The position numbers were made by a program, and so were the translations under genes. This document shows positions 38,098 through 50,732 of a stretch of DNA of 64,000 bases, one piece after another; position 1 is the first letter of the stretch, and each line of letters begins with the position of its first letter. The stretch lies in the IMG/VR virus record IMGVR_UViG_3300015371_000028, positions 2,932-66,931 of that record, one strand, 5' to 3'. The DNA comes from a virus. The notes under the pieces are model-generated. The model had not been told where the DNA came from. It saw nothing but the letters and a program-made list of their open reading frames with translations, and did no database searches.

Positions 38098-38288
38098 CGC
38101 CGCCTCCTATTTTTGCGGGTGATGGGGATGCTCGGCTTCTCGTCATCCTGCGCAGCGACGGCGAGCATGGCGGCCCGTAACGCGTCGAGCACGCGGAAGA
38201 AGCGATCCCAGTCTGCTGCCGTCATATCGGTCGTCGTGGAAATCGTGACCGTGTGCACAGGAGTCACAGGTATCCGGATGTGCCTCAT
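38094..38288 (-). CDS. Hypothetical protein
   Basis: Overlapping start/stop coupling. Confidence 0.5.
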   Translation of the reverse strand: MRHIRIPVTPVHTVTISTTTDMTAADWDRFFRVLDALRAAMLAVAAQDDEKPSIPITRKNRRRR

Positions 38289-38668
38289 TGCTGATCTTTG
38301 CGCAGATTCCGACGCATATCAGCGGCGCGTTTTGCGTCGATCATCGCTTTCGCTTGCGGTGCCTCGCCGTCAAGCATCATCACCCCCGGTTCGGCCTCAC
38401 TCGCGTCATAGAACGACACCAGGACATACGCGACCTGGCGTTCATCGAGTCCAGTTGTGTCGATGCAGACGAGTTTGAGGCCGTCTCCGACCGAGAGTCT
38501 TCCCAGGTGTCCTTCGAGCCACGGGTGTTCGGTCAGGTTGAAATGCCGTTCCACGAGTGCCCACCGGCCCGGTGTGCAACAGTGCATTGATCCTTCCTCG
38601 TGCTCGACTTTGGCTTGTTCTGCCGTGATGTCGGTGATGTGATCGTCATGCTGATCTGTCATTGTCAC
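38285..38668 (-). CDS. Hypothetical protein
   Basis: GAGG RBS; starts just after array A1. Confidence 0.55.
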   Translation of the reverse strand: MTMTDQHDDHITDITAEQAKVEHEEGSMHCCTPGRWALVERHFNLTEHPWLEGHLGRLSVGDGLKLVCIDTTGLDERQVAYVLVSFYDASEAEPGVMMLDGEAPQAKAMIDAKRAADMRRNLRKDQQ

Positions 38669-38685
38669 TACCTCGTCGAAGCAGG

Positions 38686-39010
38686 TTGCCCTGCCTTACC
38701 GCGCCAAGCCCTACCGGGCCATGCCATGCCTGGCCTCGCCTCGTCTCACCATGCCGAGCCATGCCATACCGAACCTAACCTAGCCATGCCCGACCGGGCC
38801 TTGCCTCACCGGACCTTGCCTCACCGGACCTTGCCAAGCCATACCTAGCCCTGCCTCACCCGACCTCACCAAACCGGGCCTCAGCGAACCGTGCCATACC
38901 CGATCACGCCTCACCGCACCGGTCCACACCGCTCCATGCCGTGCACGACCTAGCCATACCTTGTCGGACCCTGCCTTGCCATACCGCGCCACGCCAAGTC
39001 CGACCCTGCC
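38686..39010 (-). repeat. GGY-NN pentamer array A1 (65 units), candidate guide ncRNA
   Basis: Plus strand reads NN-RCC in exact 5-nt register with no indels; 57 of 65 units canonical by hand count. Confidence 0.92.
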
Positions 39011-39046
39011 TCGGTTGGCTCCCGGCTGCGCTATCACCTGCAACCG

Positions 39047-39111
39047 GAACCACGCCATGCCTTACCGTACCGGACCCTGCCTGACCGAGCCTTGCCCGAC
39101 CCCGCCACGCC
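39047..39111 (-). repeat. GGY-NN pentamer array A2 (13 units), candidate guide ncRNA
   Basis: 13 of 13 units canonical; begins 7 nt after the RAMP-like gene stop. Confidence 0.9.
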
Positions 39112-39118
39112 TTGATTT

Positions 39119-39760
39119 TTAAGGCTCTACTGCTATGGTGATTGCGGTTACTGAGAACCGACCGAATGTTGGCCTAAAATCGCACAACCCAACGAGCCGA
39201 CCGGCTTGGTTAATGAGATGGGTCATCACGGGCAACGGTAGATATTCCGGTGTCGTGATCAACAACTCGAACGTCAACTGCCAACCCTCACGCATTGCGG
39301 GGCGAACGCGGGTGATACCGTTTCGCTGAACGGTCACACGACGACTATCCTCATAATCCCAACTCGCCGTCTTCGGTTGGAATTGAGCCACCACATCAAG
39401 CGCGATCACCCCGGCTTTTGCGAGGTCAAACGCGCTCTTGCGCGGCGATCTTGGGTCTTGCATGAACTTCGCGCTTTGCTGAATCGACGCTGCGAAGTTT
39501 TGCCCAGGAACACCGAGATAACCATCGGCATCCCGGTAGACATAACTTTCCAAGTCATCGGATTTCTTCGCCTTCGACCCTTTGGCTGCTGCTGCTTTCC
39601 CGGCCACTGATGCGACGTTCCAGGCGTGAAACAGCAACGGACTCACCCCGATGATACTGGCGGTGAGTCGGTACGGTTGTCCTTGAACAATGCTATCTGA
39701 GCCACCGTTCGTGACTTGTTGCTCATCAACTGCGAGTTTCTGATCTGCTGCTACAGGCAT
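39119..39760 (-). CDS. Stand-alone Cas7/RAMP-like protein
   Basis: IIGVSPLLFH first strand, GYLGVPGQNFAASI helix start, R.RP..W.LTF, and C-terminal Gly-rich loop AG..VGLCDFRPTFGRF; GAAAGGA RBS. Confidence 0.75.
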   Translation of the reverse strand: MPVAADQKLAVDEQQVTNGGSDSIVQGQPYRLTASIIGVSPLLFHAWNVASVAGKAAAAKGSKAKKSDDLESYVYRDADGYLGVPGQNFAASIQQSAKFMQDPRSPRKSAFDLAKAGVIALDVVAQFQPKTASWDYEDSRRVTVQRNGITRVRPAMREGWQLTFELLITTPEYLPLPVMTHLINQAGRLVGLCDFRPTFGRFSVTAITIAVEP

Positions 39761-39791
39761 TCCCCGTTCCTTTCATAACCTCGCCACAAAA

Positions 39792-39971
39792 AAACCACGC
39801 CATGCCCTGTCTTACCGTGCCGGACCGCGCCGGACCGAACCGCGCCAGACCGTGCCATGCCTCGCCTCGCCTTGCCGGGCTTGACCTTGGCTCACCGGGC
39901 CTCGCCTCACCAGACCATGCCTCGCCTGACCTAGCCTGGGCATACCAAGCCTCGCCCTGTTATGTCATGCC
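39792..39971 (-). repeat. GGY-NN pentamer array B (36 units), candidate guide ncRNA
   Basis: 30 of 36 units canonical; starts at the upstream stop codon and ends in a T8 tract on the minus strand. Confidence 0.92.
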
Positions 39972-40225
39972 TTTCCACCTCCTCGCTTAATCGCGTCGGC
40001 AATTCGTGATAAGAAGCGATCTGGATATTTATCTGGTGCCCCTAAGAGGTCGTGATAATGAATTAGCTCAGAAATAAAGTCCTCACGGTCATCGGGATCG
40101 AGCCGTGCCCAATAGCCGATCAGAATCTCGCGCAACTCGTGGTTCGTCATATTGCGCAATCGGCAACGTACGAGATTGTTAGAACGTGTGTAACTTAACT
40201 CAACCGCAACTTCTGGCTTGTCCAT
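39965..40225 (-). CDS. Small hypothetical protein linked to the RAMP/array locus
   Basis: 86 aa, AAGGGG RBS, AT-rich codons; matched by array B. Confidence 0.65.
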   Translation of the reverse strand: MDKPEVAVELSYTRSNNLVRCRLRNMTNHELREILIGYWARLDPDDREDFISELIHYHDLLGAPDKYPDRFLSRIADAIKRGGGKA

Positions 40226-40231
40226 TGCCCC

Positions 40232-40642
40232 TTACCACTCCAATTGGAATTCCCGGTGCTGGATCGCGGCTCCCGCAATCACCAGGGAGAAGAATTCCCG
40301 GACACCGATGGTGATGGTGCCGTCGAGGTCATCGCCTTTGACTTCCCCGTTTAAGGTCAGGTTATTGCCCTCAACATCAACGTCTGCGGCCCAATTGCTG
40401 CCCGCGACGAAGATGTGATCGTTCTCGATGTTCAGCATCACGGTGAACGCACCAACGCGCCAGGAAATGTGATGCGGTTCAATCACGCGGGCGTTCATCT
40501 CCGCGTCCGTGGTTCCGTACACGATCTGGGCTGCTTTCAGTAACCGTGCTGCTGCATCAGCGGCGTGCGTTAGTCCCGGTGTCAGTTGACTCGACACAAT
40601 GTTGGTCCCCCAAGGACGAGCTACCGGTGGCGTCATGGTCAT
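40232..40642 (-). CDS. Hypothetical protein
   Basis: First gene of the leftward block; start uncertain. Confidence 0.55.
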   Translation of the reverse strand: MTMTPPVARPWGTNIVSSQLTPGLTHAADAAARLLKAAQIVYGTTDAEMNARVIEPHHISWRVGAFTVMLNIENDHIFVAGSNWAADVDVEGNNLTLNGEVKGDDLDGTITIGVREFFSLVIAGAAIQHREFQLEW

Positions 40643-40840
40643 GGAGAGCAGATTTCCACAAGCCAGTATGCCCCCTGAACGAAGGAATCGAGCGGCGCTG
40701 TATCGGTTTCCTGACAGCGCACACTCGATTCGGAGCGCCGAGCACGGGACCAACGTGCGTCTCCCGGCTGGAGGACCGGGCGTCTAGGGTACTGGACCGT
40801 CGGCGCATGAGACCGGGGTTTGACCCCCGACCTTGACCCC

Positions 40841-40869
40841 ATTGTACGTACGCCCACGATCAGTGTCAA
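40841..40869 (-). promoter_or_regulatory. Leftward sigma70-like promoter
   Basis: Minus strand TTGACA-17 nt-TACAAT; would drive the array/RAMP block. Confidence 0.65.
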
Positions 40870-40917
40870 GCACTAAATTTGAGCGCCAGCATGTACTAAA
40901 AGCACGGATGCACTGAC

Positions 40918-43390: not shown

Positions 43391-44245
43391 GTGATCGTGA
43401 CGCAGAAGACCGTCATCGAGATTCTGTCAGACAACTCCGTTCCTCTGACCGCCCGCGTGGTCTACGTCAAGCTCGTTGACTACTGCACGAGAGAGCGCGG
43501 CTGCTTCCCCGGCGAACAACGCATCGCAGATGATCTGAGCCTTTCGCTTCGGACGGTACGTCGTGCGTTGCGGGAATTGATCGACATGGCGTGGATTAAA
43601 TGCACGCACCGTGGTGCAACAAAGACCAACGTCTACGCCTTGAATCGGTACGTCGATGGTCTGGAAGTGACCGGTCAAAATGACCCATCACATGCACGGC
43701 AAGCGGTCAAAATGACCGGTCATGATGGGTCAAAACGACCGGTCATGACCGGTCAAAATGACCGCCAAACTAAATTAGAAGAACGTAATAAAGAAGAACT
43801 ACCTACCGGTACTATCGTACCGGTAGCACCGCCCCCCGAAATCCCCAAACCAAAATCGAAGGCAAGTGAGAAACCTGCTCCCGCGAATTACGTGCTGATG
43901 TCAAAGTTCCATCAATTGCGCGGAACAGAAATTCCGGCGCGCGACAGCACATCGTTCGGAACCGAAATCACGCAAGCAAGTCGTCTCGTCAAAGACGGTG
44001 TTACCGCAGATGATCTTCCGGCACTGATCGAGCATGCGTCAACTTGGGCGAAGCGGGGAATCACGTTGGGCGTACTGGTATCCGATGTTGCTCAGTGGCG
44101 TGATAGCACGAACGGAAAGGTGCAGCCCACTAAGAGCAAGAATGAACGCGTGTTCGATGAGTTTTATCGCATGATGGGGAAGCCCCGCGACGGTGCTGCA
44201 ACCGTGAGCGATGTCTTTGAGGCGCAAGGACGAGTGGTGTCATGA
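43391..44245 (+). CDS. Replication initiator (N-terminal wHTH)
   Basis: CFPGEQRIADDLSLSLRTVRRALREL..TNVY; contains internal iterons. Confidence 0.8.
   Translation: MIVTQKTVIEILSDNSVPLTARVVYVKLVDYCTRERGCFPGEQRIADDLSLSLRTVRRALRELIDMAWIKCTHRGATKTNVYALNRYVDGLEVTGQNDPSHARQAVKMTGHDGSKRPVMTGQNDRQTKLEERNKEELPTGTIVPVAPPPEIPKPKSKASEKPAPANYVLMSKFHQLRGTEIPARDSTSFGTEITQASRLVKDGVTADDLPALIEHASTWAKRGITLGVLVSDVAQWRDSTNGKVQPTKSKNERVFDEFYRMMGKPRDGAATVSDVFEAQGRVVS
43673..43763. repeat. Iterons of a putative replication origin
   Basis: GGTCAAAAYGACC at 43673, 43705, 43728 and 43751, followed by an A-rich tract. Confidence 0.75.
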
Positions 44246-47586: not shown

Positions 47587-48063
47587 ATGAAAGTGACCAA
47601 GAAGCGCACCATCGGCGGGGTGATCGAAGTAGACAAATTTGACGATGCGGAGCCGGTGCGTCATGCGACGGTGGATTGGACCGGGTTGACGGACGCGCCA
47701 CCGGTTGAAGGCGCTCTGACCACCACGTTTCCGGTCGAAGATGAGGTCAAAGCCGCCGCGACGCTCGTCCGCGATTGGCTCAAACGCTATGAGCAATGGA
47801 ACGCGGACGCGATTCCGGTCATGCTGCGTCACGCGCATGTGCCTGACGAGACCAAGCACGAAATCTTTGACGCCTACCGCAACTCCATCGGGATATTAGG
47901 GTCACTCCAAATGGCGATGGACTTGATTATCAATGGCATGTCGGTCGAGGCTTTAGTCGATCCTGTCTTGGCGCGGGCGATGCGGTCGGCAGCGCGCACC
48001 GCCGACACCCCCGCCGACGAGGACTTCGAGGCCGACCTCTCCCGGCCTGACGACGGCGAGTAA
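47587..48063 (+). CDS. Hypothetical protein
   Basis: 158 aa directly upstream of array C. Confidence 0.6.
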   Translation: MKVTKKRTIGGVIEVDKFDDAEPVRHATVDWTGLTDAPPVEGALTTTFPVEDEVKAAATLVRDWLKRYEQWNADAIPVMLRHAHVPDETKHEIFDAYRNSIGILGSLQMAMDLIINGMSVEALVDPVLARAMRSAARTADTPADEDFEADLSRPDDGE

Positions 48064-48096: not shown

Positions 48097-48411
48097 GGTG
48101 TGCCGAGGCATGGCTCGGCAAGGCGGGACATGGCGGGGTTTGGCAGGGCATGGTATGGCCGGGCGTGCTCCGGTCAGGCGAGGCATGGTTTGGCCCGGTT
48201 TGGCGCGCTCCGGTTAGGCGAGTCGTGGTACGGCGAGGCAAGGTCAGGCGAGGCAAGGTCAGGCGAGGCGCGGCGCGGTCAGGTCTGGTGAGGCAAGGCG
48301 GGACGTGGTGCGGGAAGGCGAGGTCCGCTGAGTTGGGGCTTGGTTAGGCACGGCAAGGCTCGGCTCGGTAGTGCGTGGTAGGGCGGGGTATGACATGGCA
48401 TGGTGAGGCCG
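48097..48411 (+). repeat. GGY-NN pentamer array C (63 units), candidate guide ncRNA
   Basis: 52 of 63 units canonical, exact register, intergenic, GGY on the locally transcribed + strand. Confidence 0.92.
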
Positions 48412-48470: not shown

Positions 48471-48499
48471 TTGACATTCTGATGTTATGAGAGTATAAT
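48471..48499 (+). promoter_or_regulatory. Consensus sigma70 promoter
   Basis: TTGACA-17 nt-TATAAT. Confidence 0.8.
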
Positions 48500-48542: not shown

Positions 48543-50732
48543 ATGGTCGGGCAGCGAAAGGAGTTGCGAGTGGCAGAAGCGGAGGAATTACCAATCTTAC
48601 CGATCCTGCAAGTAGGCACCGAACAAGCGTTCACGGGCGAGGAATGTGTTTATGTGCTGACGCGTTACTTGGCGGGTAACTGCGACGGTGCGCACCGACC
48701 GGATGGCGTGGGATTCAACCGAGTCCAAACGGCGTTCGGTCATCAAATGGCAGAGCAACCGTTTCGATACTGGACGCCACGTCAAACGTGGGCCATGTAT
48801 CGGGTGTTGCAAACCTACAAGAACACGCAGTTGGCACCGTGGTGGGACTTGGTGCCGGAGATACCGGAGCCGGTCAATCCCAACGCCCAGCGCGAAGCGG
48901 AGTACGCGGAGTGGCGACGGAAGAAGGAACCAACCTACGAGCCGCCGAAGCAGTTTCGCAAGATGGTGACGACCACCATCAACGGCCAATCGTTCATCGA
49001 GCTACAGCAAAACTACGATCCCGGCTTGATCGAACGGATCAAGATGCTGCCGCAGCGTCGGTACCTCAAAGAGCGGCAATGCTGGGTCGTGCCGATTCAT
49101 TTGGACGCGTTGGAAGCCGTGACCTCGTTCGCGATGGAGTACGGCTACGAGATTGAACCGGAAGTCGAAGCGGCGATCACCGAAACGATGGATGCGTTCG
49201 CGGCACGGATCGAGTTGTCGCATGCGTCTGATGGCGAGTACCAGATCGCGCTGCCACCGGGACTGGAGTTGTATCCCTTCCAGAAGATCGGCGTGCAGTA
49301 CGCGGAGCAGGTAGGCAACGTCCTGATCGCGGATCAAATGGGTCTCGGCAAGACCGTGCAAGGGCTCATGACCGTGGCGGTGACGCACTCGTTTCCGACC
49401 ATTGTCCTCTGCCCTGCAAGTCTGAAGCACAACTGGTTTCGCGAAACGCAGAAGTGGATTCCCGGCAAGCGGGTCGCGATCCTGAACGGGGGCCAATCGC
49501 AACCACTGACGCGGGTCAACGGCGATCCGATGTTCGATGTGGTCATCATCAACTACGACATCCTCGGCAAGTGGATGGAAGAGTTGACGTTGCTCAAACC
49601 GAAAGCCCTGATCGCGGATGAGTGTCACGCGGTCAAGTCTCCGAAAGCCCAGCGGACCAAGAATGTGAAGGTGCTGATCGACGCGTGCCCTGGGATGCGT
49701 CGCATCTTCCTCTCCGGAACGCCGGTCGTGAACCGGCCAATGGAATTCTGGACGCTGATTTCCTTGCTCGGCTACAGCAAAGAAATGGGTGGCCTCATAG
49801 ATTACAAGCGTCGCTACGAGAACGCGTGGCAGTCGCGCTTGCATGAGTTGAACACCAGGGCGCGGACCTACTTCATGATCCGGCGTTTGAAGGTCGATGT
49901 TCTCAAAGAACTGCCGGACAAACAGCGGACGATGGTGCCCATCGACATCGACAATCGTAAGGAATATGACGCGGCGGTCAACGACATCGCGGGCTACTTC
50001 GCGACCAAGAAGATTCAAGGCGACGAATACGACGCGGTGAAGATGTCGCTGATGGCGCAAGCGATCAGTCAGGGCATGCTCGGTGACGAAGGCATGAAGT
50101 GGGTCAACGAGCAGATGCGCACGCAGTTCGGCGCGGACTACAGCAAGTTCTACCTAATCGCGGCACAGAACGAAGAGTTGCTGCGGTGGGAAGCGCTGAA
50201 GCAACTGGCGGTCGAAGGGAAGATGGCCGGGGTCTACGCCTGGCTCGATGAATTTATGGAATCGGACGAGAAAGTGGTGGTGTTCGGCCTGCACACGTCG
50301 GTGATCGAACGGATCGCGCGACGCTACAACGCCCCGTACATTCACGGCAGCGTCAAGATCGAGCACCGGCAGTATCACGTGGATCGGTTTCAGACCGATC
50401 CCAAGTGCCGGATGATTGTCGGCAACATGCAAGCAATGGGGGAAGGATTGACCCTGACAGCGGCGAGCAACGTCGCGTTTGTTGAGTACGGCTGGAACCC
50501 GAAGACCCACGATCAGGCAGAAGATCGCTGTCACCGCATCGGGCAAAAAGATGCGGTCATGATCTGGAACCTGACGGCGGAAGACACCATCGACGAAGAA
50601 TTGGCGGCGATGATCGAGAAGAAACGAATGGTGGCGGATGCGATCCAAGACGGAGCCGGGGTCGCGAATCAGATGGAGATGATGCGCGAACTGCGGGAAA
50701 CGCTCGGCAAGAAATTGGGACGCGTCCTCTAA
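48543..50732 (+). CDS. SNF2-family (SMARCAL1-like) helicase
   Basis: LIADQMGLGKT, DECH, LSGTP, GEGLTL and QAEDRCHRIGQ motifs. Confidence 0.92.
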   Translation: MVGQRKELRVAEAEELPILPILQVGTEQAFTGEECVYVLTRYLAGNCDGAHRPDGVGFNRVQTAFGHQMAEQPFRYWTPRQTWAMYRVLQTYKNTQLAPWWDLVPEIPEPVNPNAQREAEYAEWRRKKEPTYEPPKQFRKMVTTTINGQSFIELQQNYDPGLIERIKMLPQRRYLKERQCWVVPIHLDALEAVTSFAMEYGYEIEPEVEAAITETMDAFAARIELSHASDGEYQIALPPGLELYPFQKIGVQYAEQVGNVLIADQMGLGKTVQGLMTVAVTHSFPTIVLCPASLKHNWFRETQKWIPGKRVAILNGGQSQPLTRVNGDPMFDVVIINYDILGKWMEELTLLKPKALIADECHAVKSPKAQRTKNVKVLIDACPGMRRIFLSGTPVVNRPMEFWTLISLLGYSKEMGGLIDYKRRYENAWQSRLHELNTRARTYFMIRRLKVDVLKELPDKQRTMVPIDIDNRKEYDAAVNDIAGYFATKKIQGDEYDAVKMSLMAQAISQGMLGDEGMKWVNEQMRTQFGADYSKFYLIAAQNEELLRWEALKQLAVEGKMAGVYAWLDEFMESDEKVVVFGLHTSVIERIARRYNAPYIHGSVKIEHRQYHVDRFQTDPKCRMIVGNMQAMGEGLTLTAASNVAFVEYGWNPKTHDQAEDRCHRIGQKDAVMIWNLTAEDTIDEELAAMIEKKRMVADAIQDGAGVANQMEMMRELRETLGKKLGRVL

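Follow-up and report, generated by a model that had tools for sequence, protein, structure and literature searches.

A probable VIPR locus of a tailed phage, with long contiguous GGYNN arrays and a guide that matches vipr genes of other phages

What would be the function of a short gene that stands between uninterrupted runs of five-nucleotide GGYNN units in a phage genome, and what would the runs themselves encode? The question is raised by the virus record IMGVR_UViG_3300015371_000028, of which a stretch of 64,000 nucleotides (nt; positions 2,932 to 66,931), called the window below, was analyzed. The window makes up most of the 66,931-base record, which is estimated to be 94% complete and in which Pfam and PHROG scans found genes for terminase, major head, tape-measure, tail, and replication-initiator proteins as well as for an SNF2 helicase. 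A preceding reading of the sequence alone (sequence-only reading) had proposed a minimal RNA-guided system and had pointed, with its novelty left to be checked, to a resemblance to phage systems of the VIPR (Viral Interference Programmable Repeat) kind. The resemblance turned out to be real, the class being known from three 2026 preprints (10.64898/2026.04.26.720920, 10.64898/2026.04.26.720927, 10.64898/2026.10.15.759431); VIPR is also mentioned in 10.64898/2026.10.21.760802. The locus is very probably a VIPR system of a tailed phage of approximately 67 kb, in which the arrays would guide the silencing of double-stranded DNA (dsDNA) and a 13-unit guide would be directed against the vipr genes of rivals. 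Because VIPR has been described in these preprints, the mechanism is not novel; the locus adds another example to a class already in print and is not a new system.

The locus comprises the vipr open reading frame (ORF) and four arrays (Table 1). The gene and its three flanking arrays lie where the sequence-only reading had placed them, with the same unit counts; that reading had omitted a fourth array, which is encoded by the other strand at a distance of approximately 8.3 kb from vipr and is bordered by an ORF (47587-48063) and the SNF2 helicase gene (48543-50732). The arrays had been described as gap-free, which is correct within each of them; the two downstream arrays are parted by a non-repeat spacer. 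By a stricter call, the upstream array has 33 units (39956-39792), 29 of them perfect; its first three units overlap the 3′ end of an 86-amino acid ORF (39965-40225, minus strand; stop codon at 39965-39967). Of the 177 units in all four arrays, 173 begin with G, 158 have G as the second letter, and 174 have C or T as the third. The GGY that had been called constant is perfect in 152 units (86%) and imperfect in the rest, while the NN pairs are indeed freely variable (15 of the 16 dinucleotides, with an entropy of 3.7 out of 4 bits). An unbroken stretch of perfect GGY reaches at most 27 units; when the window was shuffled 100 times with its dinucleotides preserved, the maximum was 3 units in 77 shuffles, 4 in 22, and 5 in one.

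Table 1. The vipr locus and associated features in window coordinates (columns: feature, position, strand, remark)
Downstream vrRNA array, 65 units, single register, 57 perfect	38686-39010	(-)	
Segment missing from the variant of run X1, 1,101 bases	38793-39893		spans vipr and the 13-unit array and reaches into both long arrays
Non-repeat spacer, 36 nt, between 13- and 65-unit arrays	39011-39046	(-)	inverted repeat; register shift 1
13-unit downstream array, 13/13 perfect	39047-39111	(-)	
13-unit array, units 11-13, likely constant 3′-terminal module, non-targeting	39047-39061	(-)	per-unit match 0, 0, 1 on every examined target
13-unit array, units 1-10, targeting part, putative guide against vipr codons 189-198	39062-39111	(-)	1-nt-skip matches
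vipr ORF, 213 amino acids	39119-39760	(-)	RAMP/Cas7-like, predicted to polymerize on GGYNN repeats
Own-vipr site of the 13-unit guide, imperfect match 17/20	39168-39197	(+)	
Upstream vrRNA array, 36 units, 30 perfect	39792-39971	(-)	
Sigma-70-like promoter TTGACA-17-TACAAT, 11/12 matches	40841-40869	(-)	candidate driver of the leftward operon with the locus
Distal vrRNA array, 63 units, 52 perfect	48097-48411	(+)	co-directional with the rightward operon

Certain units recur between and within the arrays. The last six to seven units of the upstream array are near-identical to the 3′ end of the 13-unit array, and an invariant unit block GGTA.G.CA.GGC, which starts at unit 10 of the 13-unit array, is common to all four arrays near their 3′ ends. 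Among 345 distinct array ends, 40 contain GGCATGGCGTGGTT at two mismatches or fewer, as against a rough expectation of about 26, which is a weak signal for a clade-wide array end. The local hairpin of the spacer is present in the minimum-free-energy fold, but that fold is no better than those of shuffled sequences (z -1.32). Within the arrays, three-unit blocks (15 nt) occur in 2.9 copies at 38793-38835 and in 2.5 copies at 48232-48269 with 96-100% identity, which suggests array growth by local duplication. A super-period, as would be produced by fixed-length guides with constant boundary units, was sought in 57 arrays (2,879 units) and rejected, the maximum z being 2.0 over 30 lags. No Rfam family, and therefore no hammerhead ribozyme, is found in the window.

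The affiliation of the protein is given by homology and by predicted fold. While Pfam contains no match for it and PHROGs only an unnamed family (phrog_4652, E 1.7e-19), the one real match among the sequences of solved structures is the “SUSP1 Vipr protein” (PDB 36pp_D; phmmer E 8.7e-5). With a profile of 36 homologues, the match reaches E 4.7e-14 and connects profile positions 33-208 (176 of 213) with residues 4-190 of the 202-residue chain. According to the part of 10.64898/2026.04.26.720927 that was available, H17, D177, R138, and W178 of SUSP1 Vipr read both guanines and R179 contacts the pyrimidine. Residues H17, R138, D177, W178, and R179 are aligned to H45, R153, D194, F195 (aromatic as well), and R196, respectively; H45, R153, D194, and R196 are invariant in the 36-homologue alignment, while the aromatic position is not. 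In a Foldseek search with an AlphaFold model built on the homologue alignment (pLDDT 83.9, pTM 0.75), 101 matches at E ≤ 1e-3 were obtained, all of them Cas7-type CRISPR backbone subunits, with E 2e-6 to type VII Cas7 and to Csm3. The Cas7/RAMP-like nature that had been read from sequence motifs is thus borne out by the homology to SUSP1 Vipr and by the predicted fold.

The association of such proteins with GGY arrays is a property of the family. It includes 6,775 proteins at E ≤ 0.001 in a collection clustered at 90% (1,028 clusters at 50% identity) and spans Planctomycetota, Proteobacteria, Actinobacteria, Cyanobacteria, and others; the closest Vipr relatives (P0002 to P0012) are 70-79% identical to the phage protein. 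A single-protein search of viral contigs returned no relatives, an alignment query 378, and the best 80 of these served as the viral locus set beside a genomic set of 58 loci from prokaryote genomes and metagenome-assembled genomes (MAGs). Same-strand GGY arrays of at least six units, for which the sequence-only reading had advised looking, lie next to the homologue in 73 of the 80 viral and 53 of the 58 genomic loci (126/138), opposite-strand arrays in 2 of the 138.

Some members of the two sets are of interest in their own right. The homologue of the cultured phage DSL-LC04 (L081; OR003939.1 22429-23046) is annotated as a helix-turn-helix transcriptional regulator, and the 320-nt gap upstream of it contains 20 + 11 + 10 (41) same-strand GGYNN units. 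A MAG of Dormiibacterota (L120:7500-8150), the sole case of opposite-strand arrays among the genomic loci, possesses six such arrays (99 units) divergent from vipr together with 29 same-strand units downstream. On one cyanobacterial (Stenomitos) scaffold, two vipr homologues are found approximately 100 kb apart (L098 and L100), each followed by a 9-unit array.

In the available portion of 10.64898/2026.04.26.720920, VIPR is described as the RAMP protein Vipr together with vrRNAs in which 9-16 YNNGG repeats precede a 3′ tail; dsDNA is bound by a 1-nt-skip rule, and competing mobile elements are transcriptionally silenced. By homology with the SUSP1 system, the arrays of the present phage would be transcribed with their host operons, and one Vipr protomer would occupy each GGYNN unit in such a way that GGY is sequestered and the NN pair is displayed. 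The resulting filament would bind dsDNA matching NN-x-NN-x and block transcription of the bound DNA. The sequence-only reading had arrived at the same picture of one protomer per GGY and NN as a non-contiguous guide, for which the homology with SUSP1 Vipr and an in-silico target matched at 20 of 20 positions now speak.

This target was found when the NN-x strings of the four arrays were scanned in 10-unit windows against 1.19 Mb of sequence, made up of the phage's own genome together with the 80 viral loci. At a skip of one nucleotide, 37 windows scored at least 17/20, as compared to 12 at a skip of 0, 8 at a skip of 2, and, with the arrays' self-matches excluded, 15 at a skip of 3; unit-shuffled arrays yielded 4-15 windows at 17 and 0-2 at 18. 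The excess at skip 1 stems from matches of the 13-unit array to the antisense of vipr. A 1-nt-skip, wobble-position target was found for this one of the four arrays only. The first ten NN pairs of that array are the antisense of vipr codons 189-198, LVGLCDFRPT, which is the G-loop segment with D194, F195, and R196. The guide scores 20/20 on the vipr of locus L178 (Vipr approximately 57% identical, frame offset 0) and 19/20 on those of L082, the closest relative among the loci (70% identical), and L149; every guide-vipr match is wobble-aligned. Over 151 distinct G-loop segments, the match ranges from 14 to 20 of 20, with the mean rising from 14.8 to 18.5 as amino-acid identity to the decapeptide increases. 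Since units 11-13 match no target and the shared 3′ block starts at unit 10, the guide proper may comprise nine units, with the remainder forming a constant terminal module; on this count, L082, L144, and L178 are perfect targets, and the phage's own gene has two mismatches. The first nine to ten units would read codon positions 1-2 of the G-loop segment and would silence the vipr of related rival phages, because this segment holds the GGY-recognizing residues. About a dozen additional guides, directed at competitors, are probably encoded by the remaining units (approximately 160).

The phage's own vipr differs from the guide only by choices between synonymous codon families of leucine and arginine: the mismatched codons are CTC at L189 (TTN expected from the guide), TTG at L192 (CTN expected), and AGG at R196 (CGN expected), and these are the only residues of the decapeptide at which a synonymous change alters codon positions 1-2. 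In the clade, R196 is encoded by CGN in 64 of 78 genes and L192, where leucine is present, by CTN in 39 of 44.

Guides directed at vipr also occur elsewhere. Among the 316 distinct arrays of all loci, five contain a vipr-directed block scoring at least 17/18, versus a single shuffled array-gene pair; the blocks comprise 9-14 units and open or close arrays of 13-60 units. In none of the four testable cases does the self score reach the best non-self score (17 versus 20, 18 versus 22, 20 versus 24, and 14 versus 17). In a distantly related phage (L151:1400-1464; Vipr 57% identical), vipr is likewise followed directly by an array of 13 units directed at G-loop codons. This guide matches five other vipr genes at 22/22 and 150 of 203 at 20/22 or better; its own gene scores 18/22 and ranks 175th of 203, and both G-loop arginine codons of that gene are AGR where the guide expects CGN.

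The 13-unit guide might, on the other hand, be an autoregulator that exerts negative feedback on vipr and the downstream arrays, with the matches in other phages arising as a by-product of G-loop conservation. It does spell exactly the phage's own decapeptide LVGLCDFRPT and directly follows the gene that it matches, and this gene ranks 17th of 203 vipr ORFs as a target. This reading can stand because the match of 17/20 (85%) over ten units exceeds the threshold of 80% of NN positions used in the papers as long as the count is limited to the matching units; with the full 13-unit array included, the match drops to 18/26 (69%), which is below the threshold. Better targets exist elsewhere, however (20/20 in L178, 19/20 in L082 and L149); the guide of L151 matches its own gene worse than 174 of 202 others; self remains below the best non-self in each of the four cases; and the self-mismatches are all synonymous switches, as selection for avoidance would produce. 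In addition, self-targeting at 80% or more is reported as absent from the clades of the discovery paper, as far as its available text goes (10.64898/2026.04.26.720920). Taken together, autoregulation appears unlikely, and a guide against the vipr of rivals is preferred.

An apparent natural variant of the locus was encountered in run X1. A contig of 29,029 nt (depth 11.5) joins position 38792 to position 39894, with nine letters shared at the joint; the vipr form is present in the same run on short contigs of depth 2-4.9 that show no differences. Both the joint and the depths are taken from assembled contigs, the depth being one figure per contig. At the joint, the register is kept and a fused array of 37 units, 33 of them perfect, is formed; it is seamless because the upstream and 65-unit arrays are one out of register and 1,101 mod 5 is 1. 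This looks like loss of vipr by an in-register crossover between the flanking arrays, with guides left behind. The phage or close variants of it turned up in several metagenome runs from soil, rhizosphere, and mine samples but in no RNA run. Over 13,122 bases, an independent metagenome contig (L140) shows 99.9% identity; its 11 differences spare vipr and the arrays, and it is uninformative as a measure of array turnover.

From these observations a more specific scenario can be drawn, which is put forward tentatively and as a possibility rather than a probability: an anti-VIPR guide aimed at the G-loop, self/non-self discrimination by purely synonymous leucine and arginine codons, and array-driven deletion of vipr that yields array-only “freeloaders”. 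If it applies, rivals could not escape the G-loop guide without disabling their own effector, because the guide targets the codons of the GGY-reading residues. Self would be marked by the codons AGR for CGN, TTG for CTN, and CTC for TTN, and array-only variants would coexist with the armed form and could borrow the Vipr of a co-infecting phage.

Several points weigh against the assignment to VIPR or parts of it. Transcription and processing of the arrays, RNA binding, silencing, and self-exemption are steps that we infer. Residues K33, E71, and M72 of SUSP1 Vipr (pyrimidine pocket, skip-base contact) are without a clear conserved counterpart in the alignment, in which E71, M72, and K33 face Q87, N88, and an alanine-rich stretch, respectively, in a loosely aligned region. 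GGY is imperfect in 14% of the units (25/177). A structured 3′ tail of the SUSP1 kind was not detected at the four array ends (z -1.32, -0.97, 0.06, and -0.44 against shuffles). The arrays of 36, 65, and 63 units have no target in 2,482,753 bases (own genome and 218 loci) at cut-offs of 16/16, 18/20, 21/24, and 24/28, at which the arrays gave 0 matches and shuffles 0-1. Scans of the viral collection with exact motifs returned 0, 0, 0, and 1 matches, that is, none for the 10-unit and 9-unit forms of the 13-unit guide, none for the first nine units of the 65-unit array, and one for the first nine units of the distal array. The latter match (L220), in a tryptophan-halogenase-like gene on an AT-rich contig, is not wobble-aligned and stops at unit 9; it was judged to be due to chance.

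Further points of this kind concern self-exemption and the accessory genes. As an argument for avoidance, the association with AGR codons draws on two carriers out of 203 non-independent loci (Fisher p 0.026), and the chance that a random family member departs from the phage's vipr at each of the three six-fold codon sites is estimated from clade codon frequencies at about 0.17; for these two reasons, self-exemption by synonymous recoding is suggestive only. The match of the guide to its own gene at 85% over ten units is to be counted here as well. Finally, vap genes, of which 10.64898/2026.04.26.720920 names six for seven VIPR types in its available part and which are typically present there, have no recognizable equivalent: no conserved vap gene was found beside vipr in the 80 loci. 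Of 39 flanking ORFs, none has its homologue next to vipr in these loci, ORFs that read through arrays excepted, and the largest cluster of neighboring genes comprises 13 of the 80. Seven flanking proteins compared by tblastn with 218 other loci gave one distant match. Given that six vap genes are named for seven types, a vap-less type may exist.

It could also be argued that the arrays are for the most part repeat DNA that decays and expands by slippage and recombination, with a small part of them functional and few working guides. This would account for the 25 degenerate units, the internal duplications of three units, the 164 units for which no target was found, the missing super-period or boundary signal, and the recombination of arrays with each other; moreover, the vrRNAs characterized in the available text of the preprints have 9-16 units and a tail. 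Against this stands that 86% of the units retain GGY with NN close to random, which argues for selection of the scaffold along the whole array length. Long arrays are also common in the clade (for example, 109 + 159 and 146 + 84 units), vipr-directed blocks of 9-14 units are found elsewhere inside arrays of 20-60 units, and contiguous “staggered” arrays are in print (10.64898/2026.04.26.720920, as far as available). Arrays made up largely of non-functional repeats are therefore considered improbable, and long arrays of guides remain the preferred reading.

Components of CRISPR systems were looked for in several ways. Tandem Repeats Finder detected no CRISPR-like repeat array, the repeats that it listed, with periods of 13-40 nt, being confined to the GGYNN arrays and four unrelated sites, and no CRISPR family of Rfam matched the window, in agreement with the sequence-only reading. 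Its statement that cas1, cas2, and nuclease genes are missing nearby holds for Cas1 (PF01867; 0 matches in the whole 66,931-base record with control genomes positive), the only cas family searched by name, and for the Pfam and PHROG scans of 24 and 23 neighboring or major ORFs, in which no cas gene or nuclease was seen near the locus. That the locus is a degenerate or minimal CRISPR-Cas remnant, with a lone Cas7 gene and repeats unrelated to guide function, may be suggested by the closeness of the fold to Csm3 and type VII Cas7, yet it is hardly conceivable in view of the failure to find a repeat-spacer array or Cas1, of a direct sequence relative among solved structures that is Vipr and not a Cas protein, and of the arrays beside 126 of 138 homologues.

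Regarding the genomic surroundings, no terminator-like site was found in 38200-40900, and the arrays would be co-transcribed with the leftward operon. A perfect consensus promoter is located at 48471-48499, between the distal array and the helicase gene. For the 86-amino acid ORF, a single homologue (69% identical) is present among 5.8 billion proteins, for which reason the ORF was rejected as a vap candidate; the contig of this homologue equals in length that of the closest Vipr relative (79% identical). Within the replication-initiator gene (43391-44245), a 23-nt tandem repeat of 2.7 copies (43704-43764) looks like the iterons of a replication origin.

Summarizing, the main value of the locus lies in confirmation, the class being already in print: reading of the raw sequence alone recovered a real RNA-guided system that belongs to a very large clade. 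The extensions would be a VIPR-positive phage with a guide at the functional core of the vipr of rivals, which may spare itself through synonymous codons; an architecture of very long contiguous arrays without vap genes or tails; and a natural vipr-null derivative formed by recombination between arrays.

How does the locus compare with known systems? With the backbone subunits of class 1 CRISPR systems (Csm3 of type III-A and Cas7 of type VII), it would share the RRM core, the thumb hairpin, and the glycine-rich loop as well as the principle of one protomer per fixed step of guide RNA. It is distinguished from them by the step of 5 nt and the non-contiguous guide, and a CRISPR array, adaptation genes, and other cas genes were not found in the searches described above; the published VIPR target, as far as the available text goes, is dsDNA that is silenced and not cleaved, which is different from class 1 CRISPR systems, too.

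Closer is the type II VIPR of SUSP1 and Pseudomonas fulva as it appears in the accessible parts of the preprints. Both are phage-borne with a single small RAMP protein and the same GG-reading residues, with same-strand GGYNN repeats on both flanks of the gene and with the same 1-nt-skip, wobble-aligned logic, and in both some guides would be aimed at other VIPR systems, as is reported for certain vrRNAs in 10.64898/2026.04.26.720920. Unlike in type II, sequence similarity is distant (direct E 8.7e-5), no vap gene was found in the present phage, and there is an extra array 8 kb off on the other strand. Whereas each SUSP1 vrRNA consists of 9-16 units plus a conserved pseudoknot tail, gap-free runs of 13-65 units occur here, with no significant 3′ structure but a short shared unit block near each array end. 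In this respect the arrays resemble the “staggered” variants mentioned in the legend to fig. S18 of 10.64898/2026.04.26.720920, which are contiguous and tail-less, the next vrRNA starting where the preceding one ends. In the part of that paper that was available, small-RNA sequencing is stated to have confirmed two architectures, the ribozyme-interspersed one and that with single vrRNAs, and by implication not the staggered one.

The third comparison is with the VIPR-null phages of 10.64898/2026.10.15.759431, which, according to the available text, lack vipr-vap1 and keep solo vrRNAs, some of them against vipr. Wobble-aligned targeting, interpreted there as an anti-escape device, and self scores below non-self scores are common to these phages and the present one, and so is a deletion of vipr of approximately 1.1 kb that spares arrays (1,114 bp in their case, 1,101 bases in run X1). 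Unlike in the VIPR-null phages, the vipr-directed guide described here is carried by a vipr-bearing phage and aimed at G-loop codons, and its self-mismatches are purely synonymous codon-family switches. The deletion in run X1 differs from the one in that report, as far as it is available, in that it would result from an in-register crossover of the two flanking arrays and that both forms are found in one sample.

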